From: Psychrobacter sp. DM4
Lineage (GTDB): Bacteria > Pseudomonadota > Gammaproteobacteria > Pseudomonadales > Moraxellaceae
Length of the DNA: 32,000 nt
Direction of reading: 5' to 3'
Assembly (NCBI RefSeq): GCF_051307035.1
Contig: NZ_CP195536.1
Coordinates: 2,806,592 to 2,838,591, forward strand
Made by a program: the position numbers and the translations under genes. Numbering within the stretch: position 1 is the first letter of the stretch; the number at the start of each line of letters is the position of its first letter. This document shows positions 9,681 to 31,768 of this stretch, piece after piece. The notes beneath the pieces are model-generated. The model did not search any database. It saw only the letters and a list, made by a program, of their open reading frames with translations, and was not told the DNA's origin.

Positions 9681-9708
9681 TTTTCACTCAAACTTCATAG
9701 AAAATCCT

Positions 9709-11150: not shown

Positions 11151-11165
11151 TAGGCTAAATAATTA

Positions 11166-11194: not shown

Positions 11195-11227
11195 TAGCTA
11201 TATTTAAACGTTGCTACATTGCTTAGA

Positions 11228-11243
11228 AGTTTCACATGAAACA
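11228..11243. other. parS-like site (AGTTTCACATGAAACA), intergenic
   Basis: Exact match to GTTTCAYRTGAAAC, with 2 mismatches to the 16-mer parS consensus TGTTTCACGTGAAACA. Confidence 0.6.
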
Positions 11244-11272
11244 AAACCAATCCCTAAGCTTATAAACATATC

Positions 11273-12235
11273 TTACTGCTGCTCTTCTAAGGCCTGCTTG
11301 AGTATTGGCTGTTTAAACTCATAGCCGGCGTCTTGCAAGGCTTGCGGGAGTACCTTTTGTCCATCAATGAGTAACGTCGACATCTCACCGAACATGAGCT
11401 TCAGTAAAAACTCTGGCAAAGTGAAAAACGTGGGACGATGTAACCAAGCGCCAAAGGTTTTAGTAAAAGTATGATTGCTCACAGGGTTAGGCGCGGTTAG
11501 GTTATAAACGACAGCGGGCGTATCAGAACTGGTTTTTGTCGCGTTATTTTGGGTCACTTGGCTATCAATAGCACTATCAACGTGTTGCTCGATGATAAAT
11601 ATCACAGCCCCAACCCAGTCCTCACGGCTGATCCAGCTCATAACTTGCTGACCATCACCCAGTTGTCCACCAACGCCCATCTTAAATGGCATCATAAGTT
11701 TACCCAGCATACCGCCTTCAGGATGCATCACAACACCTGTGCGCACAATAGCAACGGGCACGCCGTAATCAGTCGCTTTGAGCGCTAGTTGCTCCCAGGT
11801 ATTACAGAGTTTATGCGAAAAATCGGTCTCATAGCCACTGCTCTCGGTTAACGGTTTGTCGCCTTGCGTGCCATACCAGCCAATCGCTGACCCGCTAACC
11901 ATCAATTTGGGCTTAGTGCGACTACCAGCGATGTACTCAAGTAGTGATTCAGTTGGTTTGACGCGGCTGGCAAGTAATTGTTCCTTACGCTCATCACTCC
12001 AGCGCGAGTCAGCAATCCCCGCTCCTGCTAAGTTTAAAACGACATCAAAATCGTTATCGGTCTTGGCAAGCTCATCATAAGTCATCATATTGACACGACT
12101 TGGATGCGCTTGCGTCTTGTCCCGAGTGAGCCATGTGATATGCACCTCTTTGCCGTTGCCTTGATAACGACTGATGATCTCTTGGCTAAAAGCACTACCC
12201 AAAAACCCTGATCCGCCGCTAATTAAAATATTCAT
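11273..12235 (-). CDS. TIGR01777/YfcH-type epimerase-family SDR (NAD-binding N-terminus plus DUF1731 C-terminus)
   Basis: 320 aa. It begins MNILISGGSGFLGS (Rossmann GxxGxxG). The C-terminal FFTLPEFLLKLMFGEMSTLLIDGQKVLPQALQDAGYEF is typical of DUF1731. Confidence 0.8.
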   Translation of the reverse strand: MNILISGGSGFLGSAFSQEIISRYQGNGKEVHITWLTRDKTQAHPSRVNMMTYDELAKTDNDFDVVLNLAGAGIADSRWSDERKEQLLASRVKPTESLLEYIAGSRTKPKLMVSGSAIGWYGTQGDKPLTESSGYETDFSHKLCNTWEQLALKATDYGVPVAIVRTGVVMHPEGGMLGKLMMPFKMGVGGQLGDGQQVMSWISREDWVGAVIFIIEQHVDSAIDSQVTQNNATKTSSDTPAVVYNLTAPNPVSNHTFTKTFGAWLHRPTFFTLPEFLLKLMFGEMSTLLIDGQKVLPQALQDAGYEFKQPILKQALEEQQ

Positions 12236-12266
12236 TATAGTTTCCTTATTGACGATGATTTGTGCA

Positions 12267-12770
12267 TTATCTATCTAATCTTGCTGTATAAAATGTATCA
12301 TTACCGATATCGTGTGCTTTTCTACCGCTGTTGTCAAAATGGCTTTTAGTGAGTTTAGGTAAGGTAAAGTAGCCCGCTACCGTAGAGTTAATACCACCAA
12401 ACAACCCGCCGATCAGCATAAATATGAGTAAGACTAAGATCTCCGATAAAGACCCTATACCTAGATATAACACTATAAAAGCGACATAAAGCGCTGACAC
12501 CAAAAACCCTGTCAAAAAAGTAATCTTTGTAGCATTTTTTGCTCTTTGCTTTAGCTTGATAAAAGCTAATATACAGGCTGTTATAAATGCGGGTAAAAAT
12601 CCAAACAATCCCACGTATATCAGAGGCTGAAATCCTATCTGCGCAAGGCTTGATTCTCTGAAAATAATTAAGATGCTAAGCTCTGCTATCACTCCACCAA
12701 GAGCACTACCAAGTGCTGAAAATAAAAGAACAACTTGTTGATAAGGGTAAGCCCCATTATTGTTTTTCAT
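12267..12770 (-). CDS. Hypothetical integral membrane protein (about 4 TM helices)
   Basis: 167 aa with AGGA upstream of ATG 12770. It has four long hydrophobic segments and no family signature that I recognise. It ends 32 nt upstream of the yfcH-like gene, so the two are probably one operon. Confidence 0.6.
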   Translation of the reverse strand: MKNNNGAYPYQQVVLLFSALGSALGGVIAELSILIIFRESSLAQIGFQPLIYVGLFGFLPAFITACILAFIKLKQRAKNATKITFLTGFLVSALYVAFIVLYLGIGSLSEILVLLIFMLIGGLFGGINSTVAGYFTLPKLTKSHFDNSGRKAHDIGNDTFYTARLDR

Positions 12771-12867
12771 TGTATTTATCCTAAAAGTAACTTGTGAGCT
12801 TAGTATAAATATAGCGTTGGTGATGCCGATGAACTCTGTATGAATAACTGATGGAAAATAATTTTAT

Positions 12868-12892
12868 TTATTTCTGTCCAAACAGAAAATAA
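12868..12892 (-). promoter_or_regulatory. Palindromic operator copy 2 (upstream of the membrane-protein/yfcH-like operon)
   Basis: TTATTTCTGTCCAAACAGAAAATAA. The core TTTCTGT-N4-ACAGAAA is a perfect 7-bp inverted repeat. It lies 98 nt upstream of ATG 12770. Confidence 0.6.
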
Positions 12893-12929
12893 CACTTAAA
12901 TTTTTATTGAGATCAATACGACTTGACTA

Positions 12930-13448
12930 TTAACGCAAAACTTTTTTGATACTAGCGCCCAGCTTTAGTACCTTTTTAAGGATACTCGTTGGTAGTTTGA
13001 GCATCTCTGATGACCACGTGGTTAATGTACTGACGAACTCTTGCGTATCACGAATACGGGCTTTAACTTCGCTATTCTCATGTTCAAACTCAGGACTATC
13101 CATCAGCTCGTGTAAGAATTGGACAGTAGGATCTAGCTCTCGCTTTTGCCGTTCAACAACGATAATACGTGCCAGCTCCCAAACATCGGTATTGGTCGTA
13201 AAATGATCGCGGCGATCACCCAATATCGATACCTTTTGCACCAGTCCCCAATTCTGTAGCTCCTTAATACTATTAGAAACGTTTGAGCGTGCCACGCCTA
13301 ATGTCTCTGTAATCTCTTCGGCATTCAACGGTTTGCCAATCACGTAGAGCAAAGCATGAATCTGTGACATCGTACGATTGACACCCCATTTAGAGCCCAT
13401 TTCGCCCCAATGTAAGATAAATTTTTCGGTGACAGGGTTTAATTTCAT
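12930..13448 (-). CDS. GbsR/MarR-type winged-helix transcriptional regulator (COG1510-like)
   Basis: 172 aa. The wHTH region is SQIHALLYVIGKPLNAEEITETLGVARSNVSNSIKELQNWGLVQKV, followed by a helical C-terminal domain. Its own upstream region carries operator copy 3. Confidence 0.75.
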   Translation of the reverse strand: MKLNPVTEKFILHWGEMGSKWGVNRTMSQIHALLYVIGKPLNAEEITETLGVARSNVSNSIKELQNWGLVQKVSILGDRRDHFTTNTDVWELARIIVVERQKRELDPTVQFLHELMDSPEFEHENSEVKARIRDTQEFVSTLTTWSSEMLKLPTSILKKVLKLGASIKKVLR

Positions 13449-13505
13449 GATGAATACGTACTCTTGACTTTTATGGTTTGTTTAAAGATATACTGCGCTA
13501 TTCTT

Positions 13506-13529
13506 TTATTTCTGTCAATACTGAAATAA
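13506..13529 (-). promoter_or_regulatory. Palindromic operator copy 3 (upstream of the regulator gene; implies autoregulation)
   Basis: TTATTTCTGTCAATACTGAAATAA, differing from copy 1 at one position. It embeds TTGACA on the gene strand (13513-13518) and lies 58 nt upstream of ATG 13448. Confidence 0.65.
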
Positions 13530-13590
13530 TAAATATACGTTTTATTGTTAGTGACTTTTAATGAAGGCTGCTTTTATCAAATGACTATTT

Positions 13591-14217
13591 TTAACGGACG
13601 ATTAGACCAGTAACTGCATCTCGTATTTGGCTTGGCTGCGTATAATTCAAAGTCTCCGCACTTAGATAACGTATTTTGTCATCAAAGTAGGCGCACGCTT
13701 CGGTGAGGGTTGTGGCAGGCGGCTGACCTGAAGGGTTACAACTGGTAGAGACAATAAAACCGTAAGGGTTAGTGGCAGACACTAGCCGCTGGCACAGCTG
13801 ACGAATAAGAGGATGGGCGATGACTCTAACCGCAATGCTCTGATGCTCGCCCGTTATCCAAGAAGGAATAGTGCTGGTAAGCGTTTGAGAGATAGGCAAG
13901 AGCCAAGTATGGGCTTGCTGATGTTGGACATCTATACTATCGCCAATCTGCCAGCTATGGATAATTTGTTGACGCATACCTTTATCTAAAGGGTCTAACA
14001 AGGGCATTAAACGCTCAATGCTGTTGGTTATGACAATCATGCCTTTGCGCTGCGGGCGCTGTTTGATGTCCAAGATACGCCGGACTGCTGTCTTATCATA
14101 GGCGTCACAGCCAATACCCCAAACGCTTTCGGTTGGATAAGCGAGCAGTTGTCCTTGTTTAAGCCATGTAGTAGCTTGATCGACGGATTCGGTAACATTG
14201 GCTTTGTATGATGGCAT
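13591..14217 (-). CDS. tsaC: L-threonylcarbamoyladenylate synthase, type 1 (TsaC/YrdC)
   Basis: 208 aa. It has the YrdC-domain signature LLAYPTESVWGIGCDA and ...STSCNPSGQPPA. Confidence 0.85.
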   Translation of the reverse strand: MPSYKANVTESVDQATTWLKQGQLLAYPTESVWGIGCDAYDKTAVRRILDIKQRPQRKGMIVITNSIERLMPLLDPLDKGMRQQIIHSWQIGDSIDVQHQQAHTWLLPISQTLTSTIPSWITGEHQSIAVRVIAHPLIRQLCQRLVSATNPYGFIVSTSCNPSGQPPATTLTEACAYFDDKIRYLSAETLNYTQPSQIRDAVTGLIVR

Positions 14218-14294
14218 AGAGTGAACGTTAAAAGTAGTGGACTGAGAACATTATAAAAAGGTCAATACCGTGAAAGGCGCGCTAAAAATTATAG

Positions 14295-15503
14295 CTATAT
14301 ACGCAGATAACGACCGCCCTGCTCACTAATGAGACCCAAGAGCTCAAGCTCCATGAGTTGACTAATAAGCTGCGAAGTTGTTAACGAAGTACTGGAAAGT
14401 AAAACATCTAAATCCTGACCATGCCAGTCAAGCTGCTCGTACACAGCAGCCAAATGCTCAGGTGTAACTACGTCAACCTTAGTCGTAGGAGCGGTGTTCG
14501 AAAGTTTTTGATCGTCTGGCAGGTAATCAGTGCTGTTATTGATGCGAGGTTTAGTTTTATTGACACTTGGATGAATTGATGGCGTATAAAGTTGGGCACT
14601 CACATCGTCCAATACTTGCTGCGGATGATATATCAAGGTTGCGCCTTCACGTATTAGATGATGGCAACCTTCAGCGTTGCTGTTGTCAATGTGACTGGGT
14701 ACGGCAAAGACTTGCTTGCCCTGCTCTGAGGTCAGACGTGCGGTAATCAGTGAACCGCTTTTTATCGTCGCTTCGGTCACTATCGTGGCTAGACTCAGAC
14801 CTGCGACCAAGCGATTACGGCGCGGAAAGGTATGCTTGTGCGGCTGGGTATGCGGCAATAGCTCACTGATAAGACAGCCGCCTTGCTCGATGATTTTGCT
14901 AAAGAGTTGATCGTGATGATTGGGATAGCTGATATTGATACCCGTACCCATAACCCCAATGGTGCGGCCCTTATACAGAGTATCCGTTTGCGTCAGTGCG
15001 CCTAAGTGCGCACACTTATCAACACCTATTGCCAGACCGCTAGTCACTACGTAGCCGGCTTGTACGAGATACTGTGCCATATCAAAGGTAATCTTTTGCG
15101 CATGAGTGCTAGGCTTGCGGCTACCAACAATAGCGATTTGAGGCTGCTGTAACAACGTATGATTACCACGATAAAACAACAATGGCGGTGGATCATATAT
15201 TTGCGATAGTGATGTTGGATAATCAGGCTGATTGGCGAACAGGAGACCGTAGCGACCCTCTATCAGGGCTTGCTCAATTTTATCGAGATCAGTCTGTGTC
15301 TGCTCTGGGTTTTCATGGCGTTTGAGATGTGTATGGTGGATACCCAACTCTTGCCAAACGTTTGCTTTGGCTTGCCATGCCAGCTGCGCACTACCCAAAT
15401 GACTAACCAGCTTATGATAAGCCGATAGTGATGCATTGACCTCATACCATAGCGCTAATATAGCGCGCTGATCTACTGATAAAAAAGGTCGTTGCATGGT
15501 CAT
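14295..15503 (-). CDS. dprA: DNA-processing protein DprA (Smf)
   Basis: 402 aa. The core is IAIVGSRKPS...GLAIGVDKCAHLGAL...GTGINISYP...PRRNRLVAGLS, with a C-terminal winged-helix-like tail. Confidence 0.9.
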   Translation of the reverse strand: MTMQRPFLSVDQRAILALWYEVNASLSAYHKLVSHLGSAQLAWQAKANVWQELGIHHTHLKRHENPEQTQTDLDKIEQALIEGRYGLLFANQPDYPTSLSQIYDPPPLLFYRGNHTLLQQPQIAIVGSRKPSTHAQKITFDMAQYLVQAGYVVTSGLAIGVDKCAHLGALTQTDTLYKGRTIGVMGTGINISYPNHHDQLFSKIIEQGGCLISELLPHTQPHKHTFPRRNRLVAGLSLATIVTEATIKSGSLITARLTSEQGKQVFAVPSHIDNSNAEGCHHLIREGATLIYHPQQVLDDVSAQLYTPSIHPSVNKTKPRINNSTDYLPDDQKLSNTAPTTKVDVVTPEHLAAVYEQLDWHGQDLDVLLSSTSLTTSQLISQLMELELLGLISEQGGRYLRI

Positions 15504-15543
15504 GTGTCGTTTGCTCTTTTTAGTTTTTTACCTTCAAAAACTG

Positions 15544-16641
15544 TTATAAATAAGGCGGCGGTAGTAATTTATCACCCACATTGAGTGGCAAGTCAGAGCT
15601 TAAGACATAAGCATAACTGATATCGCTAAAGGTATTGAATACCATTAGCATACCGCTTGGCTCATTTGGTAGACGCACTGGCATATCGTTATCGATAGTG
15701 TCACGTACCAAAGCGCCTTGTTGGTAGATAGTCAAGACATCGCCAGGTTTTGCGCCTTGAGTACTGCCCAGATTGATAGCGACCACGCTACCTTTGGCCG
15801 CTGAGCTGATTGAATCCATGACGCGCACGATCATACCACCGCGATTGACTGTTGCAGGCTGAGGATAGAACACAGGCGGTATTGAGTTACCCAGCTCAAC
15901 GAATACCCGATCGCCTTCACGCACCTCCTTGTCATGAGAGTCTGTCAGTTGCAAGCTGCTCACGCCGTTGGTAGCCACGCTCGTCACCATACCCGTTGCT
16001 ACTTGGGTCACCTCTAACCCTATAATTCTTTGGCTCTTGGGGTCGATATATTTTTCGCCCTCGCGGTAGACGCCATAACGTTGACCGACAATTAAAGGAA
16101 CGCCTTTTGCATAGACCTTGTCACCGCTTGCGGTAATCAAATTACCCGTTTTAGATGCCAAGACATATGGCGTACTCTCAAAGTCTGCTGGATTGACGAT
16201 GATGGTTTTATCAAGCCAGTGCTGAATGGCAGAGCGCGGAATCGCAGGAATACTATTGGCGATCGACGTGATAGCGACCGCAGCGACCGCAACATTGCCT
16301 GTTAATTGCCTCTCAACGCCAGCACAGCCCTCGCCCGTATCAACACCAATGAGCGTTTTACCTTGAATAACGCACAAGATAAGAACATCGTTTGGATAAA
16401 TGAGGTTTGGGTTTTTGATTTGCTTATTGGTCGCCCAAATATCTCTCCAGCGCCAAGGGCTATCTAGATATCGTCCTGATATATCCCATAAGGTATCGCC
16501 TTTTTTGACGATATAGCGATTGGGCGCATCAGCTTTGATCGTAGGTGGTGGATTGTTAGCATAAGCAGTCGTCAGTAGCATAGTGCTACTAAAAGCGGTG
16601 ACAATAAAAGCCTTGGTTATGGCAGTGATGCTTATCTTCAT
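15544..16641 (-). CDS. tsaP: LysM-domain periplasmic protein, TsaP-like (type IV pilus secretin-associated protein family)
   Basis: The start is taken at ATG 16641 ([19 protein letters not shown]...AYA signal peptide); the track start at 16653 is a GTG. The LysM motif is [30 protein letters not shown]. The long beta-rich C-terminus and the position immediately upstream of dprA match the Pseudomonas/Neisseria tsaP locus. Confidence 0.7.
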
Positions 16642-16858
16642 TATTATATCCACAAAATATTGAGTTTATCGTAGGCAGTATAGACTGAGAGGATAGGCTT
16701 GATAGTGATCAAACAATCCTATGTAAAGCGTTCAAACTATAGGCGTACAAATTCTATATTTACAATAGTATGAACCATAGCATAATTTCGGACATATTTT
16801 TACAAAAATATATCTATTTTGAACTTTCATAGAGGCACTAACTGTCGTTACGATCTTT

Positions 16859-16898
16859 GTTTCATGTGGAACATTAAAATTATTGTTCCACATGAAAC
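16859..16898. repeat. Perfect 15-bp inverted repeat; each arm is a one-mismatch parS-like site
   Basis: GTTTCATGTGGAACA (16859-16873), the loop ttaaaattat, then TGTTCCACATGAAAC (16884-16898). It lies 14 nt after the thrC stop. No T-run follows on either strand, so it is not a canonical intrinsic terminator. Confidence 0.8.
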
Positions 16899-16912
16899 CA
16901 TTATTAGAACTA

Positions 16913-18331: not shown

Positions 18332-18381
18332 TATTTTTCCTACCTAAAATAAGAGTGTCTGATAGTGCGTTGAATCGTTGT

Positions 18382-19920
18382 TTACTTCGCCGTCTTTTGC
18401 AATAACGCATAATAAAACCCATCGCCGCCATCGCTATCGATGGGCAGGCATTGACGACCAATCTCTTGACTAATACCCCAGTTGCAAGCATCGGTAAATT
18501 CAATTGCCAGCGCATCGTCATGATGTTTGATAAAGTCCTGCATCTGCTCAACGTTTTCTTGCTTTAAAATAGAGCAAGTCACATAGAGCAGATAGCCACC
18601 AATTTTGAGCTGTGGCCATAAATTATGCAAGATATCTGCTTGTAGTAATGCTGTCTGCGCCATATCTTCTTCGTTACGCAAGATGCTGATATCAGGATGA
18701 CGACGGATAACGCCTGTTGCCGTACAAGGAGAATCAAGCAAAATAGCATCGAACATGGCTAGGTTTTCATCTTTAGCTTGCTGCCAGCGAGTGGCATCTG
18801 CACAAACGACATTGAGATCAATGTGTTCGTTTTGATCTTGGTCGAGGTGTAAGCGCTCTAAGTTTTCATGAATACGGGTAATACGCAGCGCTTCGTTATC
18901 GATAGCGGTTAATTTAATGTCAGCATCATTTTGTTTCACATGAAACAAAGACTGCTCATCGTTAGAACTTATTAATTCCAACCAATGAGCAAGCTTACCA
19001 CCAGGGGCTGCGCAAGCATCTAGCAGATGAATAGCAGTAGTCGATGCACCCTCTTCGCGCGCGACAGTTATCTTTTGGACAAGCGCTTGGTTGATGAGTA
19101 CGGCAGCGAGCTGAGCATGCATGTCTTGTACACTGGCAGCGCCATCGCTAAATTGCGGTAAATGACTTACCGCGGTACTTTGCTGCAAGCGCAGAGCTTG
19201 TGATGACATTTGGGTAACGGTAGCCTCAGCTTGATCTGCTAGCGGGTTGTTCAAAACTAAACCACTACGCAGCTCAACTACATCGTTACTGATATCGGCA
19301 TCTATAAGCATTTGATGGTAGTCATTTACCAAATGGATGTTGCTATTAGCGCGCAAAAACATAGGCGCCGCTTGACGCAGTCCTTGAGTAAGCTCATTGT
19401 AATATTCGCTCCAATCTTGCTTGATCTGATACGCAAGCCAGTTAGGTAAGCTATGATTCTTGTCACATTTTTTGCGAAATTTATTGGGGTTTTTAGCGAT
19501 TTTACGTAAGATCGCATTGACCAAACCTGTGGCATGGGCGAACTCTATCTCTTTGATCGCTTCAACGGTTTCGTGAATCGCGGCGTGATCGGCGACTTCT
19601 AAATACAGCAGTTGCACCATACCAACCTGAATCGTCGTACGTACTTCTATCTCTTCGATAGGGTTATCCGCTAGACTATCGAGCAATCGCTCTAGCGCGT
19701 ACCACTGACGCAAAGTCGTCAACAGTAGCGCATGAGCGAAGCCTTTGTCTCCATCATGCAAGCTATTAAGTAGAGGATCGAGCACGCTTGCGAGGGATTG
19801 GCCATTTTGAATCGCGAGCAAAGTGCGAATGACGCGCACGCGCACGCTGCCGATCATTTTTAGGTTGCTCGATGGCTTGGATTTTTTGCTGTTGTGATTA
19901 GACGCGGTTTGGTGTCTCAT
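18382..19920 (-). CDS. rsmB: 16S rRNA (cytosine967-C5)-methyltransferase RsmB (Sun)
   Basis: 512 aa with an N-terminal NusB-like domain. It has the SAM motif LDACAAPGGK and the catalytic DSPCTATGVIRRHPD. It follows fmt, as in most gammaproteobacteria. Confidence 0.9.
   Translation of the reverse strand: MRHQTASNHNSKKSKPSSNLKMIGSVRVRVIRTLLAIQNGQSLASVLDPLLNSLHDGDKGFAHALLLTTLRQWYALERLLDSLADNPIEEIEVRTTIQVGMVQLLYLEVADHAAIHETVEAIKEIEFAHATGLVNAILRKIAKNPNKFRKKCDKNHSLPNWLAYQIKQDWSEYYNELTQGLRQAAPMFLRANSNIHLVNDYHQMLIDADISNDVVELRSGLVLNNPLADQAEATVTQMSSQALRLQQSTAVSHLPQFSDGAASVQDMHAQLAAVLINQALVQKITVAREEGASTTAIHLLDACAAPGGKLAHWLELISSNDEQSLFHVKQNDADIKLTAIDNEALRITRIHENLERLHLDQDQNEHIDLNVVCADATRWQQAKDENLAMFDAILLDSPCTATGVIRRHPDISILRNEEDMAQTALLQADILHNLWPQLKIGGYLLYVTCSILKQENVEQMQDFIKHHDDALAIEFTDACNWGISQEIGRQCLPIDSDGGDGFYYALLQKTAK
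18932..18947. other. parS-like site (TGTTTCACATGAAACA) inside rsmB
   Basis: One mismatch (central G to A) to TGTTTCACGTGAAACA. It sits within the near-palindrome TTTGTTTCACATGAAACAAA. Confidence 0.7.
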
Positions 19921-19991
19921 GATACTTAGATGTCCTATATACGAAATATGATTTGCGCCTGTTTATTTTTGCTTCGATGTTTAAAAAAACA

Positions 19992-21050: not shown

Positions 21051-21283
21051 ATTAGGGCTTGGTAAAGGAGTGATTGAGCTATTATAAGTGAGTTTTCTAT
21101 ATTGCGCCATGTCTGTACTAGCGCCTTATCTAGGCTAGGGCAAAGCATCCATTCGTTTTTTTTACTAAAATAGCGAGGTCAAACCGATGACAAGGGTTTA
21201 GTATGGTTGTTATACTCAAATGTGTTATCAGTTTTGTTAGTCGCCTCTTATAGGATTTGGTACTGACATAGGATCCTGCTTTT

Positions 21284-24067
21284 ATGCAACAGTTCCAATC
21301 CTTACAACGCTTGCTGCTATTTTATACAGTAACGCTGACAGTAATGTTGGCGTTGTACTATGCCATGATCTTTAGTGAGCTCAGAACTTTTAGCAAGCAG
21401 CATAGCATTGATACTTTTGACGCTCTACAGTACGATTTTGTTAATCATGATGACAACGTTACTGACCTTGATGTCAAAAAATTACTAGATAAACCTTATT
21501 TTCAAGATTTGAGCTATCAGCTCATATTTATGCTGCCCTCGAGCCAGACTTTTATTCATAGATACACTCGTCCCAATGATAGTACGATATCGACCGTTGT
21601 CTTTCCTACGATCTCAACTCCTACCAAGAGCAGTAGTAATAGCGCCTACCTACTGACAGCCGTTGATCTAAAAGGCACCATCAAGCTCCAAAACGGTCAT
21701 CAGCTCTACGTTATGATCAAGCATCGCCCTGTCGAGATGGACTGGATATCTTATCAATTCTGGCTCCCTTTGATGACAGCGCTCTTTTTATTGACGCTCG
21801 CTTTACTCTATATGCTCAGACGCAATGCCAATTGGAGAGAGCTACTAAGTTATGCTGATAATTTGGGTAATAGTGCAAAAGAGTCCTATAGTCCGCAGCC
21901 CTTTTTAGAGAGTAACACTACCACTGAATTTATGCGTTTAGGGCATGCACTTAGCCGTATTAGCTATCAGCTGCACAACAACTATCGCAGTATAAGAACG
22001 CTCAATCATCGTCTTGAGCGCTTGGTTGAACAAGCACCGCTACCGATGCTCATGCTCATGCGCCACGGTCAGATCAGTTTTTCTAATAAACGTTTTGAGC
22101 AAGTATTTGGTATCTCATCTGATCCTAATCATAGCTACCAGTTAACTGAGTTTGTCTCAGGACTTGATGATGCCACTCAGCTATGGCTCAAAAACCTATC
22201 GACGCAGCGTGTTATGCGTACTTTAACAGTAAAGAGTTTAAAGGATGAGCAAGCCTACCAGCTTCATATCACTCCTTGGTTTGGTGATCACGGACAAATT
22301 CATGGGTTTACCATACTTTTAAACTCTATCAACGACTTTGTCAAACAAACGGAGCGATTACAACGTCATAATCAAAGTTTGCAAAGGCAACTCAACGAGG
22401 CAAATAGAACCAAAGCTATTATTCATCACGAGCTTACTACACCTTTGGATAAAATAACCAGTATGATCCAATCGATAGAACCTAATACCTCATTAAGTAA
22501 AGATCTCGATATATTGGATGACATCATCCGATTAAGTAGTACCATGTCAAATAAACTTAACGAGGTGCTAAGTAGTACAAAAACAGAAAGCCCAAAATCA
22601 ATGGTTACCAATAAACCTGTAGATATCTTTGTCCTTGGCAAGCAAGTGATTGCTGATATTACGGATAGAGTACATCAACAAAATCTTGAGCTTTTGTACT
22701 TTTTTGCCCCAAACTGTCCACGTTATATTAGTACTGATGGCGCTAAACTAAAACAGATACTGCTCACTCTATTAAAGGACGCTATTGGCGCTACTGACTT
22801 GGGATGTGTCTCATTGACCATTGATGCCATCTCTAACATGAGCGCTATACCAGACGAACAACCACAAGCTTCTATAATCAATGCGCTTGATAATAACTCC
22901 TGCTATTGGGTGCGCTTCACTGTGCAAGACACGGCAACTAAAAAGCTTCACAAAAAGCATATCCATCCTTACTACTATCTAGAAGAGGCGCAAAAATCAA
23001 CTCAGCAAAACTACTATAGCAGCAAGCTAAGAATGGCCGCTATCGATACCTCAGCTCAGTTATTGGGAGGTTATTTTGATTTTGGAGATCGCTTAAATAA
23101 AGAATTAAAGGATGCCTCAAATGAAATTTTTGACAAAACCACTTCTAATGAGGTCAACAGTACTATTCTCTACTTACCGTGTCGCCAGCCCGACTATACG
23201 CCGGTATATTTTGTTAACGATAGCTTATCTGACGTACACCTTATCGCTATAGTTAGTCATCAAATGTACGCCCAGCATTTACAGCATCTATGCCAGTATC
23301 TGTCCACGAAATGTAGCGTTTATACAAGTATTGATCAGATAGAGGATATAAAAAGTCTGGTGCAAAAAGAGCAAAGCCTTGTGCCTATCATTCTATTAGA
23401 CTTTGAGCTTTATGAGACTACTTATAACCAAGCGTTGGATGATAGCAAAAAATCTAACAATCAAGCCGATATCATAAGGTTTTTAGATGAGTTGCTCACT
23501 GAAAAATCACTCTCAACCTTACTGTTGAGTCGCAAATGTGCACGTCGCATACCTGCGACTATCCTTGATCGTTTTGATGGTTTTTTAGACAAACCTTTAG
23601 ATGTGAGCTTATTATTATCTGAGCTCAAACGCATTGCCCTGTTAATAAAAAAACCTCAAGAAACAGTTATACCCGCTCTCACTAAAACGACAGAACCAGA
23701 GTTATTATCACCATTAGTACTAGTCGTTGAGGACAGTCCAACCAATCAAAAGATTACTTGTAAATTACTCAAAAAACTAGGGTATCGTAGCGTCGTGGCA
23801 GATGATGGACAAAAAGGGCTGGCGCAATTTGAGGCTCAAAATGAGCATATTGACCTGATTTTGATGGACTGTCGTATGCCTATTATGGATGGGTTCAAAG
23901 CCACTCAAGCCATTCGCGCACAAGATAGCAATATTCCAATTGTTGCTCTCACAGCCAACAACACAGAGGCTGATAGAGAGGCTTGCTTTCGAGCAGGAAT
24001 GAATGACTTCTTATCTAAGCCTATCAATAAAGATAATCTACACGCGGTTCTACAAAAGTTTATTTAA
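21284..24067 (+). CDS. Hybrid sensor histidine-kinase-like protein: 2 TM/periplasmic sensor, PAS-like, HisKA, degenerate HATPase, receiver-like and canonical receiver domains
   Basis: 927 aa with TM helices at about aa 10-31 and 158-178. The H-box is IIHHELTTPL (His382 = nt 22427-22429). The N-box-like LKQILLTLLKDAIGAT has Asp499 where the Mg-ATP Asn is expected. The G1 position reads VQDTATKK, not DxGxG, and no GxGLG G2 box is present. The C-terminal REC domain is intact (VVEDSP..., LILMD with Asp862 = nt 23867-23869, Thr890, Lys912-Pro). Confidence 0.8.
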   Translation: MQQFQSLQRLLLFYTVTLTVMLALYYAMIFSELRTFSKQHSIDTFDALQYDFVNHDDNVTDLDVKKLLDKPYFQDLSYQLIFMLPSSQTFIHRYTRPNDSTISTVVFPTISTPTKSSSNSAYLLTAVDLKGTIKLQNGHQLYVMIKHRPVEMDWISYQFWLPLMTALFLLTLALLYMLRRNANWRELLSYADNLGNSAKESYSPQPFLESNTTTEFMRLGHALSRISYQLHNNYRSIRTLNHRLERLVEQAPLPMLMLMRHGQISFSNKRFEQVFGISSDPNHSYQLTEFVSGLDDATQLWLKNLSTQRVMRTLTVKSLKDEQAYQLHITPWFGDHGQIHGFTILLNSINDFVKQTERLQRHNQSLQRQLNEANRTKAIIHHELTTPLDKITSMIQSIEPNTSLSKDLDILDDIIRLSSTMSNKLNEVLSSTKTESPKSMVTNKPVDIFVLGKQVIADITDRVHQQNLELLYFFAPNCPRYISTDGAKLKQILLTLLKDAIGATDLGCVSLTIDAISNMSAIPDEQPQASIINALDNNSCYWVRFTVQDTATKKLHKKHIHPYYYLEEAQKSTQQNYYSSKLRMAAIDTSAQLLGGYFDFGDRLNKELKDASNEIFDKTTSNEVNSTILYLPCRQPDYTPVYFVNDSLSDVHLIAIVSHQMYAQHLQHLCQYLSTKCSVYTSIDQIEDIKSLVQKEQSLVPIILLDFELYETTYNQALDDSKKSNNQADIIRFLDELLTEKSLSTLLLSRKCARRIPATILDRFDGFLDKPLDVSLLLSELKRIALLIKKPQETVIPALTKTTEPELLSPLVLVVEDSPTNQKITCKLLKKLGYRSVVADDGQKGLAQFEAQNEHIDLILMDCRMPIMDGFKATQAIRAQDSNIPIVALTANNTEADREACFRAGMNDFLSKPINKDNLHAVLQKFI

Positions 24068-24075
24068 CCTGATGA

Positions 24076-24732
24076 TTACTTCATGAAACCATTATCAGCT
24101 AAGAACGCTTCTGTGATTTTGTTTTTTGGACTAGCAGGTGTTTTGTTCAATAAGCGCTCAAGATAACGCGCGACAATATCAACCTCAACATTGACTTTAT
24201 CTCCTACTAGCCAGTGCTTGGCAATATTAGTCACTTGTGCGGTATGCGGAATGATATTTAGCGAGACGATATTATCTTTGACTAGGTTGGTCGTTAGACT
24301 TATACCATCTAGAGTAATGGAGCCCTTGGTTGCCGTGTAATGAGCCAAATCTTCTGGAATAGCGATCTCGATGTAGATAGAACGCGCGTCTTGCTGTAAT
24401 TTTACGACTGTACCTACACCATCGACATGGCCTGAGACAATATGACCGCCAAATCGAGTCGTTGGTAACATCGCTTTTTCTAAGTTAACAATATCGCCAG
24501 TTTTTAGTCCTTCAAGAGCCGTATGAGTCATAGTTTCACGTGAAACATCAACCGAATAGTAGTTGCTACCTCTGTCTACTACCGTGAGACAAATACCGTT
24601 GGATGCTATAGAGTCTCCGAGCTTAACATCGCTAAAGTCCAGATCATCAGACTCTACCGTCAAGCGTATATCTCCACCTACCGATTCCATAGATTTTATT
24701 TTACCTATACTTTCTATAATTCCTGTAAACAT
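24076..24732 (-). CDS. ribE: Riboflavin synthase (alpha chain)
   Basis: 218 aa. It begins MFTGIIESIGKI and has two lumazine-binding repeats (GDSIASNGICLTV and KGSITLDGISLTT). Confidence 0.93.
   Translation of the reverse strand: MFTGIIESIGKIKSMESVGGDIRLTVESDDLDFSDVKLGDSIASNGICLTVVDRGSNYYSVDVSRETMTHTALEGLKTGDIVNLEKAMLPTTRFGGHIVSGHVDGVGTVVKLQQDARSIYIEIAIPEDLAHYTATKGSITLDGISLTTNLVKDNIVSLNIIPHTAQVTNIAKHWLVGDKVNVEVDIVARYLERLLNKTPASPKNKITEAFLADNGFMK
24532..24547. other. parS-like site (AGTTTCACGTGAAACA) inside ribE
   Basis: Canonical CACGTG centre, with one mismatch at the outermost base. Confidence 0.75.
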
Positions 24733-24974
24733 ATGAACCTCGTGTGTACCTGCTCAATATAGAGCAGCTATTAAATTAACATGTATTTTGATGAGTTAGA
24801 TATCTAATGCAGATAAATATAAAGTCTAAAGTTGAGTACTAGATTACGTATACATTTATTAGAGTTATCCACAATACGACTCTATCTTAGAAGATATATA
24901 AATAAACAGTAATTAAACATAAGTTATTGATTAATATCAACTTATTATGGAATGATTAAGATGATAACTTATTT

Positions 24975-24990
24975 AGTTTCATATGAAACA
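24975..24990. other. parS-like site (AGTTTCATATGAAACA), ribD-ribE spacer
   Basis: The arms are exact but the centre is CATATG. 3 mismatches to the 16-mer consensus. Confidence 0.5.
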
Positions 24991-25001
24991 AAGTTATACA
25001 C

Positions 25002-25017
25002 AGTTTCATGTGAAACT
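25002..25017. other. parS-like site (AGTTTCATGTGAAACT), ribD-ribE spacer
   Basis: The 14-mer arms are exact and the centre is CATGTG. It abuts the TTATACACA DnaA-like box. Confidence 0.5.
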
Positions 25018-25092
25018 AAACGCTGTGAAAATACAGTTATTAACCGATATTCAAACACCTTTGCTGTGGATAACTTGTTGATAATCTTTTAG

Positions 25093-26148
25093 TTAAGTAG
25101 GTCGTAAAGTTAGCTTTAAGTCAGAGCCAATTTTCTCAAAATTATGATACTCAAAACGTAACTGCTGTGCCAAGGATATGGGATTACTATCAATCATAGG
25201 ACGTGATTTTGTTCCCAAGATACAGGGTGCTTGATAAACAATGAGCTCATCTACTAGTTGCTGTTCTAAAAAGCTCGCTGCTACATTAGCGCCAGCCTCT
25301 ACCAGCACATCATAGCAGTGGTGCTCACTTACCAAATATTTCAACAACTCTATTAAGTTATCACGACGCCAGTAAACCGTATCGACACACTGACACAGCT
25401 TATAATCAGATCGCAAGTCATGTGTTAAGCGCTCGCGTCTGTCCAGTATAACGATAACAGGCGCGGGCACTTGCTCTGATGGTACGCCTAACTGATTGGA
25501 GCGTACGTTGAGCTGTGGATTATCTTTAATCACCGTCTCGCTACCTGTGATAATCGCACCGCTTAAGGCTCGCAGTTTTTGAACATCTGCGCGAGCAGCT
25601 GATCCTGTAATCCACTTCGACTCCCCGGTTGCCATTGCCGTACGACCATCAAGGCTAGTAGCAATTTTGAGACGTACAAAAGGCATTTGCGTGCGCATAG
25701 CCTTTAAGAACCCAAGATTTAGTGCTTCTGCTTGCTCAGTGAATACCCCAACTTTTACTTCGATATCTGCTTGCTCAAGTAGACTTACGCCGCGTCCAGC
25801 GACCTGCGGATTGGGATCAAGGCCAGCTATGACCACGCGCTTAATGCCAGCCTTTATTAACGCTAGCGCGCAAGGGGGCGTACGCCCAGTATGACTACAG
25901 GGCTCCAAGGTCACGTAAGCCGTAGCACCAGCAGCTTGCTCCTTGGCATCGTTGAGCGCGAACACTTCTGCATGCGGCCTACCTGCTTTGGGATGATACC
26001 CTTGACCGACTATTTGTCCTGCTTGCACGATGACGCACCCTACGGCTGGATTGGGCCTAACCGTGTACAAACCAAGTTTTGCCTGCTCGATAGCAAGCAT
26101 CATAAAGTAGCGGTCTTGGGCGTCTTGCGTATGATCTAAGGATGGCAT
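25093..26148 (-). CDS. ribD: Bifunctional riboflavin biosynthesis protein RibD (deaminase/reductase)
   Basis: The deaminase zinc motifs are HAEVFAL and PCSHTGRTPPC, followed by a C-terminal reductase domain. The start is taken at ATG 26148 (MPSLDHTQD...). The track start at 26220 is a TTG that adds a hydrophobic 24-aa leader, which is unlikely to be real. Confidence 0.9.
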   Translation of the reverse strand: MPSLDHTQDAQDRYFMMLAIEQAKLGLYTVRPNPAVGCVIVQAGQIVGQGYHPKAGRPHAEVFALNDAKEQAAGATAYVTLEPCSHTGRTPPCALALIKAGIKRVVIAGLDPNPQVAGRGVSLLEQADIEVKVGVFTEQAEALNLGFLKAMRTQMPFVRLKIATSLDGRTAMATGESKWITGSAARADVQKLRALSGAIITGSETVIKDNPQLNVRSNQLGVPSEQVPAPVIVILDRRERLTHDLRSDYKLCQCVDTVYWRRDNLIELLKYLVSEHHCYDVLVEAGANVAASFLEQQLVDELIVYQAPCILGTKSRPMIDSNPISLAQQLRFEYHNFEKIGSDLKLTLRPT

Positions 26149-26232
26149 AAGTAACAGCTTAATAGAGAATGCAAAGTTTAAATACAAAAATAATAAAAGG
26201 GAGAGATTGATACATTCCAAGTGGCTTATATG

Positions 26233-26700
26233 TTACTTACCAGATTTATCATTGGGCCGGATGTTAGCAATTTCCTGATGAAAAGCATCAATATCTTGAA
26301 AGTCACGATAGACACTAGCAAAGCGAACATAAGCGACATCATCTAAAACTTTGAGTTCGCTCATGATGATCTCACCTAAAACCTTACTGTTGATCTCGCG
26401 CTCACCCATTTGCCTAATACGTTTTTCGATACGGCTAATCATTGCCTCTTGCTCATCAAGAGTAATAGGACGCTTTTGTAGCGGCAATAAAATTGAGCGA
26501 CGCAGTTTTTCATTATCGTAAGGCACAATCTTACCGCTTGATTTGATAATACGCGGCATGACAACCTCTACCATTTCAAAGGTGGTAAAGCGCTCTTGAC
26601 AGCTATTGCAAGAACGGCGGCGACGTACTTGCGCGCCTTCTGCGGCCAAACGTGAGTCAATGACCTTCGTCTCTGAAGCGTTACAATAAGGACAATGCAT
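26233..26700 (-). CDS. nrdR: Transcriptional repressor NrdR
   Basis: 155 aa. It has the zinc ribbon [17 protein letters not shown]...[12 protein letters not shown] followed by an ATP-cone domain. The nrdR-ribD linkage is conserved. Confidence 0.93.
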
Positions 26701-26733
26701 ACTGCATCCTTTTTTTAGTGTTGCAATGTGTAC

Positions 26734-28152
26734 TCACTTACCTATACAAAAACTACCAAATATCTTGCCCAGTAGATCATCAGCATTGAATTCACCTGTG
26801 ATCTCACCTAAGCTTCGCTGAGCTTGACGCAAACTTTCAGCGACTAGTTCACCTGCTGTAAATACCGTAAGCTGTTCGTGCGCCTCGTTCAAGTAATCAG
26901 CGGTACGTCTGAGAGCATCTAGATGACGAGTACGTGCAATCAAACTATTTTCTGGTGGGTGAAATCCTACTTTATCACATAACGTTGCTATCAGATGATC
27001 GATACCGACGCCTGTTTCACATGAAACATTAATCTGTTCATAGCCTTTACTTCGCATCTCATTTTCGGTGTTAAAAGCTATGTTTTCGTTACCCTTATCG
27101 TTTAACAAATCGCTTTTGTTAGCGATAATCAGTAAGCGCTTAGCATCAGGGAGCTTGCCAAATAGCTGCTTTGCGAGCTGTAAAGGTGTGCTCTCACTCT
27201 CAAGGTCACGAGTTACATCATAGACCATAAGTAGTATGTCAGCTTGCTCAATCGCTGTGCGAGCGCGCTCAATGCCTATGCGCTCTACGGTGTCTTCGGT
27301 ATCTCTTAGACCTGCGGTATCAGTCAGATGTAGTGTCAGACCATTGAGCACAACCGTCTCATTCAACGTGTCTCTAGTGGTTCCTGCGACCTCTGTGACA
27401 ATAGCACGCTCTTGTCCCGCTAATCGATTGAGTAGACTTGATTTGCCAGCATTTGGCCGGCCTGCCAGTACGACATGAATACCATCACGTAACAACTGCC
27501 CTTGTTTTGCGGTTGCCAAAACTTGCTGTATCTGCGCCTGCACCTGTTCAAGCTTGTCTTGTATGATGCCATCGGACAAAAAATCAACGTCTTCTTCATC
27601 AGGGAAATCGATAGCCGCTTCAACATGCAAACGCAGATGAATTAGTTGCTCTAATAGCTGATTAATCTTGTGTGAAAACTCACCACTCAACGAGCGAATA
27701 GCACTACTAGCAGCCGCGGCGCTAGTTGCATCTATAGCATCAGCGATAGCTTCTGCTTGCACGAGATCGAGCTTATCATTATCAAAGGCACGATAGGAAA
27801 ACTCACCTGCTGTTGCCTGCTGCGCGCCAAGCTCAAACGCTCGTGCTAACAGTTGATTCTGTAGTATCACCCCGCCATGACCTTGTAGCTCGATGACATC
27901 TTCACCCGTAAAGGAATGCGGCGCTTTGAAATACAGCACTAAGCCCTCGTCAATAACCGTACCATCTGCTTGATAGAAACGGCAAAAGCTCGCCATACGT
28001 GGCATAAAGACGGATTTGCCAGTCAATTTACAGGCAATGCTATAAGCATGCGACCCTGATAGACGAATGACGCCTACGCCTGCGCGTCCGAGTGGCGTTG
28101 CAATAGCAGCAATGGTCGACAATCCAGAAGCAGTTGGCGGCTCAGTTGACAT
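26734..28152 (-). CDS. mnmE: tRNA uridine-5-carboxymethylaminomethyl(34) synthesis GTPase MnmE (TrmE)
   Basis: P-loop GRPNAGKSSLLN, then DTAGLR, NKSDL and a C-terminal FCIGK. The start is taken at ATG 28152 (472 aa); the track start at 28188 is a TTG. Confidence 0.93.
   Translation of the reverse strand: MSTEPPTASGLSTIAAIATPLGRAGVGVIRLSGSHAYSIACKLTGKSVFMPRMASFCRFYQADGTVIDEGLVLYFKAPHSFTGEDVIELQGHGGVILQNQLLARAFELGAQQATAGEFSYRAFDNDKLDLVQAEAIADAIDATSAAAASSAIRSLSGEFSHKINQLLEQLIHLRLHVEAAIDFPDEEDVDFLSDGIIQDKLEQVQAQIQQVLATAKQGQLLRDGIHVVLAGRPNAGKSSLLNRLAGQERAIVTEVAGTTRDTLNETVVLNGLTLHLTDTAGLRDTEDTVERIGIERARTAIEQADILLMVYDVTRDLESESTPLQLAKQLFGKLPDAKRLLIIANKSDLLNDKGNENIAFNTENEMRSKGYEQINVSCETGVGIDHLIATLCDKVGFHPPENSLIARTRHLDALRRTADYLNEAHEQLTVFTAGELVAESLRQAQRSLGEITGEFNADDLLGKIFGSFCIGK
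27013..27028. other. parS-like site (TGTTTCACATGAAACA) inside mnmE
   Basis: One mismatch (centre) to TGTTTCACGTGAAACA. Confidence 0.7.
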
Positions 28153-28291
28153 TAGCGGCGTAGCGATAGAATTCACATCTATTCTCAATAGCTAAAAACA
28201 TCATTATAGACGGCTGTAAGGAGACTGACAAAGCAAACTTCGTATCAGTATTCATTACCGATATTTTGTTAAACAGTAAAACTATAACCAT

Positions 28292-28320
28292 AAAAAAACC
28301 ACCGCTTAAGCGATGGTTTT
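28292..28320 (-). terminator. Rho-independent terminator after yidC
   Basis: The minus strand reads AAAACCATCGCTTAAGCGGTGGTTTTTTTA: a GC-rich stem (one G-U pair), a TTAA loop and a T7 run, about 25 nt after the stop at 28344. Confidence 0.75.
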
Positions 28321-28343
28321 AAGACGTTACAGAAAGTATGAGA

Positions 28344-30020
28344 TTAGCTGAGCACTTTCACTGTGCGACGCTTTTGCTCCTCTTCAACTTTTTTGTTGAC
28401 GATATACTGCTGCGTCATACTAAATAAGTTATTCACTGTCCAGTACAGTACGAGACCGGCTGGAAAGAACAACATAAATGCGGTAAAAATAATCGGCAAA
28501 AACTTCATTACTTTGGCTTGCATCGGATCAGCAGGCTGCGGGTTAAGCTGCTGCTGAATAAACATTGACGCACCCATGAGAAGAGGTAAGATAAACCAAG
28601 GATCCATCGCGGATAAATCCTGAATCCATAGTATCCACGGAGCGTGGCGCAACTCAACACTTTCGACAAGCACCCAATACAGTGCTAAGAAAATGGGCAT
28701 TTGCATGAGTATTGGCAAACATCCTGCCATTGGATTGACTTTTTCTTCTTTGTAGATGCCCATCATCTCTTGCGACATCTTCATGCGATCGTCGCCATGT
28801 TCTTCTTTGAGCGCGGCTAAGCGTGGAGCTAGCGCACGCATCTTCGCCATCGAATAGTAGCTCTTGTTTGAGAACCACATCAGGGCAATCTTAACCAGAA
28901 TAGTCAGTACGATGATTGACCAGCCCCAGTTGCCAAGTACTTTGTGAATACCATCGAGGATGGCAAATAGTATCTTAGATATTGGCCATAACAATCCATA
29001 ATCAACGGTTTGATTAAGACCTACCGCAACATCTTTGAGCTCAGACTGTACTTTTGGTCCTGAGTATAACGTTGCATTTAACGTCACTTGCTTGTTTGGT
29101 GCAACGTTGACAGGCTGACTATTAAAACCAATAAAGTAATCATTGCCTGTTTCACGTGAAAAGAACTTACCTGTAAAGTTCTCAGGTGTCCATGCTGAAA
29201 CAAAATAATGCTGAACGATGCCTACCCAGCCTTCATCACTGGTCACTGCCAACTGCTCGCTAAAGTCCTTAAATTTAAGCTTGTTGTAAGGATCATCAGG
29301 GGTACCCCAAGCACCGCCTAGATAAGTGGCCATACTTAAAGCACCTTTATCAGACATGCCTGGATCTTTACTATCATCACGTTTGAGCTGCGCAAACATC
29401 TGTCCTTGCCATGCTGCTGTAGATGCGTTTTGAATCTGATAACTGACGTCAATAGGGTATTTGTCTTGTGTAAAGGTAAAGGTCTTGGTAATCGTCACAC
29501 CATCTTTTTGATAAGTAAGTGGCACAGACAGTGTTTGTTGGCCTTCTTCCATAACATAGTTATTAGCGGTATGGCTGTAGTTAGCGCGACCTTCTGCGGT
29601 ATCAATACCATCTTGACCAATCAGACCAGACTGCGCCACATAGATACGATTGCTGTTACTCTCTAGTAATACAAAAGGCTCATCACTGTCGAGTGTCGCA
29701 TCATACTGCTTAAGCGCTGCGTACTCTATATCGCCGCCCTCAGGATTTATTTTAATGTCGTAACGGTCAGTGGTCACTGTGATAAGAGATGTATTGCTAG
29801 ACGGCGCGGCTACGATACTATTATCAGTAGGTAGTGTTTGTACAGGAATGTCCCCTGCCGCACCAGTAGTCGCTGGTATATCAGCACTTACCGATGCTGC
29901 GGGTTTAGACACAGTATCCACAGCAGGTGCATCAGCGTAATCGTCACGCCATGCTAATATCAGCAGATAAGCGGTGATCAGCATTGCAATAATGATCATC
30001 ACCCGAAGTATCTTTTGCAT
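28344..30020 (-). CDS. yidC: Membrane protein insertase YidC
   Basis: 558 aa. It has an N-terminal TM helix, a large periplasmic P1 domain, and a conserved C-terminal 5-TM core (GWSIIVLTILVKIALMW..., GCLPILMQMPIFLALYW). Confidence 0.95.
   Translation of the reverse strand: MQKILRVMIIIAMLITAYLLILAWRDDYADAPAVDTVSKPAASVSADIPATTGAAGDIPVQTLPTDNSIVAAPSSNTSLITVTTDRYDIKINPEGGDIEYAALKQYDATLDSDEPFVLLESNSNRIYVAQSGLIGQDGIDTAEGRANYSHTANNYVMEEGQQTLSVPLTYQKDGVTITKTFTFTQDKYPIDVSYQIQNASTAAWQGQMFAQLKRDDSKDPGMSDKGALSMATYLGGAWGTPDDPYNKLKFKDFSEQLAVTSDEGWVGIVQHYFVSAWTPENFTGKFFSRETGNDYFIGFNSQPVNVAPNKQVTLNATLYSGPKVQSELKDVAVGLNQTVDYGLLWPISKILFAILDGIHKVLGNWGWSIIVLTILVKIALMWFSNKSYYSMAKMRALAPRLAALKEEHGDDRMKMSQEMMGIYKEEKVNPMAGCLPILMQMPIFLALYWVLVESVELRHAPWILWIQDLSAMDPWFILPLLMGASMFIQQQLNPQPADPMQAKVMKFLPIIFTAFMLFFPAGLVLYWTVNNLFSMTQQYIVNKKVEEEQKRRTVKVLS
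29148..29163. other. Degenerate parS-like site (TGTTTCACGTGAAAAG) inside yidC
   Basis: The left half and centre are canonical, with 2 mismatches at the right end. Confidence 0.45.
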
Positions 30021-31533: not shown

Positions 31534-31768
31534 TTATCCACAGGAAAAGTCGTTTTCCATAATAATTAATAATTAATATATATAAGTATTGTTGTTATTG
31601 GTGCCCTAATTATCTGGGGTTAAGTCTAATAATTTATTATTTATCAATATACTAGACTAGGGGTAACCCTGTGTATAACCTGTGGGTGAAATATGGATAA
31701 CTCTGATTTTTGACTTATCCACAAAAGTATCCACAGCCTTGTCCACAAGAAAATAGATGTTATCCACA
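31534..31768. other. Chromosomal replication origin (oriC), partial: DnaA-box cluster plus AT-rich tracts upstream of rpmH
   Basis: Perfect TTATCCACA boxes at 31534, 31715 and 31760 (+). One-mismatch boxes at 31670 (TGTGTATAA), 31692 (TATGGATAA), 31727 (GTATCCACA) and 31739 (TTGTCCACA). AT-rich tracts at about 31561-31600 and 31627-31652 are candidate unwinding elements. The rpmH-side location matches Pseudomonas-type origins. Confidence 0.75.

Follow-up and report, generated by a model that had tools for sequence, protein, structure and literature searches.

A conserved array of mostly off-consensus parS-like sites around oriC, the probable centromere of the Psychrobacter chromosome

Introduction

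A 32,000-nucleotide stretch of DNA from Psychrobacter sp. DM4 (the window), which forms the left flank of the replication origin oriC in a Psychrobacter (Moraxellaceae) chromosome, carries an array of short palindromes that very probably are chromosomal parS sites and, with further copies on the other side of oriC, make up the centromere of the Psychrobacter chromosome; binding by ParB is what we infer from the comparison of sequences. An initial annotation of the window had proposed an origin-proximal array of ParB-type parS sites, and the proposal is upheld by the match of the copies to the parS consensus (one to three mismatches), by their clustering around oriC and by their conservation at orthologous positions throughout the genus. 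As a type of feature the array is expected biology; what is unusual is the conservation of off-consensus centres and the presence of a DnaA box between two of the copies.

If the sites work as in known ParABS systems, dimers of the host ParB would bind each of them and, on binding cytidine triphosphate, would close into clamps that slide onto the neighbouring DNA. The many close sites would thereby build a single large ParB–DNA complex over the origin, which ParA would pull apart after replication and at which SMC may be loaded. In each arm of a site GTTTCA plus a pyrimidine would be recognized; a site with a single C-to-T arm would be tolerated or even preferred, and one with two such arms would be selected against.

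Copies of the motif in the window

Pattern counting finds six exact copies of the 14-mer GTTTCAYRTGAAAC in the window and three more with one mismatch (Table 1), in agreement with the initial annotation. Its rough estimate that far fewer than 0.01 exact matches should occur by chance also holds, as dinucleotide-preserving shuffles gave 0.00 exact and 0.02 one-mismatch copies and in no shuffle were the observed counts reached. All nine copies lie within one to three mismatches of the 16-bp parS consensus TGTTTCACGTGAAACA. Under the operational definition of parS used for B. subtilis and P. aeruginosa, about two mismatches to TGTTNCACGTGAAACA, six of the nine have one or two mismatches and three have three, one or two of these being at the outer positions 1 and 16. 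Just two copies, at 24533 and 29149, have a CACGTG centre, as had been noted, and seven of the nine are without an intact CACGTG core.

The 40-nt flanks of the copies share a mean ungapped identity of 32%, the highest values coming from the overlapping flanks of the two pairs. Because the flanks are unrelated, the copies are not a miniature inverted-repeat transposable element or other mobile repeat, as was claimed at the outset. The motif has two stop-free frames, V-S-(R/C)-E-T and F-H-(V/M)-K, and several sites are embedded in coding sequence; the coordinates and translations of the open reading frames confirm the frames earlier assigned to mnmE, ribE, yidC (F-S-R-E-T) and rsmB.

Table 1. 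Putative parS sites and DnaA boxes in the window
Feature	Position	Strand	Location	Remarks
Putative parS, exact, centre CACATG	11229..11242		Intergenic, fatty-acid-desaturase-like gene / yfcH-like gene	Leftmost site of the array
parS-like, one mismatch, GTTTCATGTGGAAC	16859..16872		Spacer of thrC-like gene / LysM gene	First of pair
parS-like, one mismatch, GTTCCACATGAAAC	16885..16898		Spacer of thrC-like gene / LysM gene	Second of pair
Putative parS, exact, centre CACATG	18933..18946		Inside rsmB, read F-H-V-K	Hypervariable linker
Putative parS, exact, canonical CACGTG	24533..24546		Inside ribE, read V-S-R-E-T
DnaA-box cluster	24865..25073		ribD–ribE intergenic	Perfect TTATCCACA boxes at 24865-24873 and 25065-25073 plus spacer box; encloses the parS pair
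Putative parS, exact, centre CATATG	24976..24989		ribD–ribE intergenic pair	Both arms GTTTCAT
DnaA box TTATACACA	24994..25002	+	ribD–ribE intergenic	In 13-bp spacer between parS 24976 and 25003
Putative parS, exact, centre CATGTG	25003..25016		ribD–ribE intergenic pair	Second of pair
Putative parS, exact, centre CACATG	27014..27027		Inside mnmE, codons 387-391	V-S-C-E-T, at GTPase G5 motif
Doubtful parS-like copy, GTTTCACGTGAAAA	29149..29162		Inside yidC	One arm intact, the other without the invariant G
oriC DnaA-box cluster	31534..31768		Between rpmH and dnaA	Perfect DnaA boxes; array centred here

Conservation across Psychrobacter

The motif was followed through about 80 Psychrobacter species, with 83 loci for most site counts and 66 for recF. 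Several exact copies are found at orthologous positions in each locus that spans the region. The mnmE site is present in all 83 loci with its centre fixed and reads TGTTTCATGTGAAACA in essentially all of them; the recF site, just beyond the window, is an identical 16-mer in 65 of 66. The ribE site is found in 80 loci and the rsmB site in 77, where some 61 have CACGTG and some 16 CATGTG through a synonymous change of a His codon, and the ribD–ribE spacer holds about two sites per locus. In rsmB (18382-19920) the motif is the sole conserved stretch of a linker that is hypervariable between species.

Entropy profiles of third codon positions give 0.05 bits within the motif and 1.18 bits in the flanks for mnmE, 0.62 and 1.30 bits for ribE, and 0 and 0.85 bits for recF, which lies on the opposite strand and in which the site reads F-H-M-K. 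In other words, 14–16 bases of the motif are frozen amid third codon positions that are saturated with change. Conservation of the DNA independently of coding is thus seen at synonymous and intergenic positions over about 80 species, and the earlier claim of a signal at the DNA level is borne out by third positions that are invariant in the motif and variable around it. These patterns mark the copies in the window, except that in yidC, as functional sites under selection at the level of DNA.

The peptide S-(R/C)-E-T is common to three genic copies, as could be the case if the copies had arisen by chance, from codon constraints or from a small mobile repeat. This explanation is refuted, and the weight left to it is negligible, because the shuffles give close to zero copies, four to five copies are intergenic and the frames differ between genes, synonymous positions are frozen, the flanks are unrelated and the positions are orthologous across species.

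Four of the copies in the window call for separate comment. The one in yidC is matched, with at most two mismatches, in just 8 of 83 loci, and in its defective arm position 1 is not the G that 98% of the arms of real sites have there; it is probably incidental or weak. The pair at 16859 and 16885 has a spacing of 26 bp with no DnaA box in the spacer, and arm position 4 of the 16885 site, N in the consensus tGTTNCACGTGAAACa, is C. At the position of this pair a single CACGTG site is found in a few relatives and none in most, so that the pair is lineage-specific and looks like a recent local gain or duplication. Most of the related metagenome contigs that extend to the region of the leftmost site, at 11229, carry an exact orthologue of it 3.1–5.8 kb downstream of dprA; nearly all orthologues read TGTTTCATGTGAAACA and two are flipped.

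Variation of the centre

Pooling over the genus gave 559 sites and 1118 arms, from which the arm is t-G-T-T-T-C-A-[C 0.66 / T 0.34], that is, GTTTCAC in 66% and GTTTCAT in 34%. Positions 3 and 4 are also variable (mostly T, with 3–5% C), and position 6 is A in 99.5%. A Noc-binding site, the arm of which is ATTTCCC (position 1 A, position 6 C; Jalal 2020, PMC7383237), was rejected as the identity of the motif on account of the G and the A that the arms have at these positions. The centres are TG in 188 sites, CG in 183, CA in 179, TA in seven and AA in two; TG, CA or TA stands in about two thirds of the 559. The variation is one of C/T on each arm, i.e. of transitions from CG to TG or CA, and sites with two T arms (TA) are about ten times rarer than independent arms would predict (seven against about 66 expected, in non-independent data). 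As TA centres make up just 7 of the 559, the CATATG copy at 24976, a site that in relatives is almost always CACATG, is a rare derived state.

Where the centre falls on synonymous or non-coding positions (rsmB and the recF–gyrB spacer), CG, TG and CA are all found among the species. In mnmE and recF the variant centre is fixed and alters the protein (Cys for Arg and Met for Val, respectively), and in the ribD–ribE pair CA is the centre of one site in 71 of 74 loci and of the other in 66, though a single transition would restore CG. That all centre changes are transitions of CG to TG or CA would also be expected of a mutational by-product, arising by deamination of methylated CpG or by avoidance of restriction at CACGTG, and the centres would then be uninformative on the preference of ParB. 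We regard this as extremely unlikely: the genus-wide fixation of an intergenic CA that one transition would turn back into CG speaks against it, as do an observed/expected ratio of 1.02 for CpG and one of 1.42 for CACGTG, which is not depleted and has about half of its copies outside parS. These two ratios led us to reject both restriction avoidance and CpG decay as the origin of the altered centres. A tendency to avoid orphan GTTTCAC half-sites was rejected as well: none occurs outside parS in the window, yet their observed/expected ratio is 1.4 in the pooled loci.

The same freedom of the arm has been reported for P. aeruginosa, where chromatin immunoprecipitation sequencing (ChIP-seq) of ParB gave the logo GtTcCAc, with C-to-T changes allowed at positions 4 and 7 (Kawalek 2018, PMC5961200; Jecz 2015, PMC4368675), and GTTTCAT among the six enriched half-sites (PMC5961200; PMC4368675). 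Core mismatches are moreover tolerated in published lists of parS sites, as in P. aeruginosa parS5 and parS10 (PMC4368675; PMC5961200). The absence of a CACGTG core is therefore treated here as a variant difference and not as a ground for excluding parS identity. The relaxed centre specificity that the initial annotation ascribed to the resident ParB is a fair inference, supported by this C-to-T tolerance and opposed by in vitro data that stress the intact CACGTG core (see Discussion). A fair statement of the comparison is that Psychrobacter keeps, under selection, full palindromes with one weaker-looking arm. No match to the variant 14-mers in a parS context was found in the literature searched.

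A DnaA box between two parS sites

The single DnaA box fixed between the two parS sites of the ribD–ribE pair, TTATACACA, matches the DnaA-box consensus TTWTNCACA and has the sequence of E. coli box R2. Of the 81 loci in which a site occurs at this position, 74 have the two enclosing parS sites 27 bp apart; in these 74 the 13-bp spacer TGTGTATAACTTT is nearly invariant, amid neighbouring intergenic DNA that is saturated with change. A deeper clade keeps TGTGGATTA with a spacing of 28 bp. The whole cluster, three boxes in 209 bp at 6.5 kb from oriC, retains two or more perfect boxes in 80 of 83 loci, and thus shows what marks a DnaA-box cluster, namely several TTWTNCACA boxes in a short non-coding region conserved between species. 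No Rfam family and no consensus sigma-70 promoter was found in the conserved spacer, and a riboswitch or such a promoter was rejected as the cause of its conservation.

DnaA is predicted to bind here, and the cluster may be an oriCII-like element or one that couples DnaA to ParB. Related arrangements have been described in Caulobacter crescentus, which has DnaA boxes in its centromere/parS region (Mera 2014, as reviewed in PMC6399470), and in Pseudomonas, the oriCII of which is a DnaA-box cluster upstream of gidAB-parAB (PMC13438810). All three have DnaA boxes at or beside centromere or partition loci a few kb from oriC. Psychrobacter differs in having one box fixed exactly between parS sites 27 bp apart, and from Pseudomonas oriCII also in that its cluster lies upstream of ribE, without gidAB-parAB there. 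No description of a single DnaA box fixed between two parS sites was found in the literature examined.

Two further perfect DnaA boxes, in opposite orientation and 11 bp apart, are observed in the yidD–yidC intergenic region (30267-30294), outside oriC proper; a yidD–yidC box was found in 78 of 83 Psychrobacter loci.

Extent of the array and gene context

In loci from complete Psychrobacter chromosomes the sites continue beyond oriC on its right side, within recF and within the recF–gyrB, gyrB–mntP and mntP–rlmF spacers. Right-side sites also occur in two contigs from the same two samples as the species of the window, which add four, two exact and two with one mismatch. The array therefore comprises at least 14 sites over about 30 kb, extending some 20 kb leftwards and 10 kb rightwards from oriC. 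No site within two mismatches occurs at positions 1-11228 of the window or in the next 3.4 kb leftwards, nor in the 9.3 kb past the outermost right-hand site in Psychrobacter sp. VH5. Over the DNA examined, the sites are enriched far above chance and concentrated on both sides of the origin, with site-free DNA beyond. The nine sites in about 18 kb to which attention had first been drawn are real as copies and belong to this larger array; the one in yidC is not conserved, and the density is not exceptional. Most species have several parS sites near oriC (reviewed in PMC7022226), and C. glutamicum has ten in 35 kb (PMC7083940), so that the number in Psychrobacter is high but not surprising.

Besides mnmE, ribD, ribE, rsmB and yidC, the window contains nrdR, a hybrid histidine kinase gene, fmt, the thrC-like gene, a gene for a LysM protein, dprA and tsaC; yidD, rnpA and rpmH follow to the right of yidC. 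The gene names and the placing of oriC at the right edge of the window in the initial annotation are sustained by gene matches, by the DnaA boxes and by a metagenome contig of the same species (its YidC is identical), in which dnaA, dnaN and recF follow the oriC boxes. The 80 best relatives of MnmE among species-representative genomes are 81–87% identical, and those that are named are all Psychrobacter. Almost every gene is directed away from oriC, up to which the cumulative GC skew drops steadily. The sole gene inside the array that points towards oriC is the hybrid histidine kinase gene (21284-24067, + strand); a deeper Psychrobacter clade, in which fmt comes directly after ribE, lacks it, and it may have been inserted into the centromere region. 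On the dnaA side of the oriC DnaA boxes, before the window ends, a perfect tandem heptamer, TGTGCTC, is repeated 13.4 times (31819-31912).

Location of parAB and comparison with related systems

The statement that parAB are absent from the window agrees with our searches, and the operon of A. baumannii likewise lies far from the oriC region. In three A. baumannii chromosomes filed as plasmids in PLSDB (NZ_CP077849.1, NZ_CP064203.1 and NZ_CP104448.1), rsmG-parA-parB is 41–48% of the chromosome away from mnmE, and no parS was found within 6 kb of it; the ParB encoded there is 57% identical to that of P. aeruginosa. Par operons usually sit in the origin domain, according to a review (PMC7022226), whereas that of A. 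baumannii is far outside. The location of parA and parB that had been called for was achieved in part: the A. baumannii operon was located, unlinked from oriC, and none was found in the Psychrobacter loci examined. An unlinked parAB is probably a trait of the family, and in Psychrobacter, as in Acinetobacter, the genes probably lie elsewhere on the chromosome.

The two genera are alike in this absence of parAB near oriC and in having a parS at the same recF codon, where A. baumannii reads M-F-H-V-E and Psychrobacter V-F-H-M-K. They differ in number and centre. In the 20 kb to each side of mnmE A. baumannii carries just two parS sites, both CACGTG, and none in mnmE, the G5 motif of which reads V-S-A-K-Q as against V-S-C-E-T in Psychrobacter; a deep Psychrobacter clade retains CACGTG in recF. 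Given the two canonical sites of A. baumannii and the lack of one in its mnmE, both the increase in site number and the shift of the centre are derived within Psychrobacter. The mnmE site was created there with Cys, a small residue, in place of Ala; a canonical centre would need Arg.

Pseudomonas and Psychrobacter are both gammaproteobacteria, and the GTDB order Pseudomonadales takes in the families of both. The sites of P. aeruginosa are likewise 16-bp palindromes near oriC with the same consensus, the same arm logo and the same freedom at positions 4 and 7. P. aeruginosa has four origin sites, all CACGTG, and its parAB lie about 7 kb from oriC (PMC4368675; PMC5961200), whereas in Psychrobacter the sites number about 14, two thirds of which have one GTTTCAT arm, and parAB are absent from some 20–31 kb around oriC. 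T-arm variants are known in Pseudomonas only as isolated half-sites; in Psychrobacter they occur in conserved full palindromes. C. glutamicum resembles Psychrobacter in that many closely spaced sites form one origin-proximal centromere, in which any single site suffices (Bohm 2020, PMC7083940). Its ten sites are identical, nine of them are intergenic and the cluster lies 73 kb from oriC (PMC7083940); the Psychrobacter sites differ in their centres, five lie inside genes and the array is centred on oriC.

Discussion

Several observations weigh against the assignment of the array to chromosomal parS. No ParA or ParB homologue was found in the window or in about 150 related Psychrobacter loci, which were compared by tblastn with Spo0J, Soj and ParB, and none was found closer to oriC than about 31 kb on its left or about 20 kb on its right. 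A search for the Psychrobacter ParB with P. aeruginosa ParB matched Pseudomonas only, an IMG/VR scan with a ParB alignment returned nothing above 51% identity, and an A. baumannii ParA query matched Acinetobacter only. The clustering around oriC is partial evidence, drawn from flanks only (window 1-11228 with 3.4 kb to its left, and 9.3 kb on the right), and the counts pooled across species are not phylogenetically independent. Lastly, the authors of the in vitro work on P. aeruginosa infer that an intact CACGTG core is important, and parS5, with the core TACATG and a second change in the other arm, was the weakest site in vitro (PMC4368675; PMC5961200); by comparison, the variant-centre sites of Psychrobacter may be of low affinity. 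As to published work, the literature searches yielded no study of chromosomal parS or ParB in Psychrobacter or any other member of the Moraxellaceae, and parB is not mentioned in the supplementary files of two Psychrobacter genome papers.

The in vitro results could be carried further, to the view that only the CACGTG-centred sites (that in ribE and some on the right arm) work and that the CACATG, CATGTG and CATATG copies are decayed relics which ParB does not use. The lack of a ChIP signal at parS5 and the CACGTG that the recF site has in A. baumannii and in a deep Psychrobacter clade would agree with it. Against it, the variant sites are conserved like the canonical ones: amid saturated flanks, mnmE has CATGTG in every one of the 83 loci and recF has it in 65 of 66, and the CA centre of the ribD–ribE pair is kept to a similar degree (71/74 and 66/74). 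Decay would also hit all positions and include transversions, whereas the centre shows only C/T and G/A, and the mnmE site was newly created in the genus with a variant centre. Decay into relics is accordingly judged unlikely.

It is very unlikely, in turn, that the motif is the operator of some other DNA-binding protein, e.g. a transcription factor, and merely resembles parS. Such a protein could explain the two pairs that lie in intergenic regions upstream of genes, and a Psychrobacter ParB was not found in the sequence searches run. Five sites, however, lie inside unrelated genes, and the sites surround oriC on both arms, which is not the distribution of a regulon; their sequence is that of the universal parS, their arm logo is the one that ParB ChIP gave in a related member of the order, and the recF site is shared with Acinetobacter, which has ParB. 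The assignment to chromosomal parS, with ParB as the predicted ligand, is therefore retained as very probable.

A further-reaching proposal is that the centromere was rebuilt in Psychrobacter, from about two canonical sites to about 14, with the half-canonical combination GTTTCAC/GTTTCAT as the standard form, a ParB that accepts or prefers asymmetry, and parS–DnaA box–parS as a fused unit. This we put forward tentatively, as a possibility that is at present less probable than its contrary.

Biological implications

Identification of the array should aid annotation, as it marks the centromere and the origin of Psychrobacter chromosomes, over about 30 kb in all that lie on both sides of oriC. 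The roughly 80 species amount to a natural mutagenesis of parS in which just arm positions 4 and 7 are left free, as pyrimidines and rarely in both arms, a pattern that agrees with the P. aeruginosa ChIP data and sharpens them. Selection for parS would also seem to have rewritten a protein, since the G5 motif of MnmE has apparently been recoded from S-A-K to S-C-E. In the invariant DnaA box that two parS sites enclose, the machineries of initiation and segregation have a candidate point of direct contact that can be tested; if the centromere was indeed rebuilt as proposed, the same 41 bp would see competition or cooperation between ParB and the replication initiator, and initiation would thereby be coupled to segregation.

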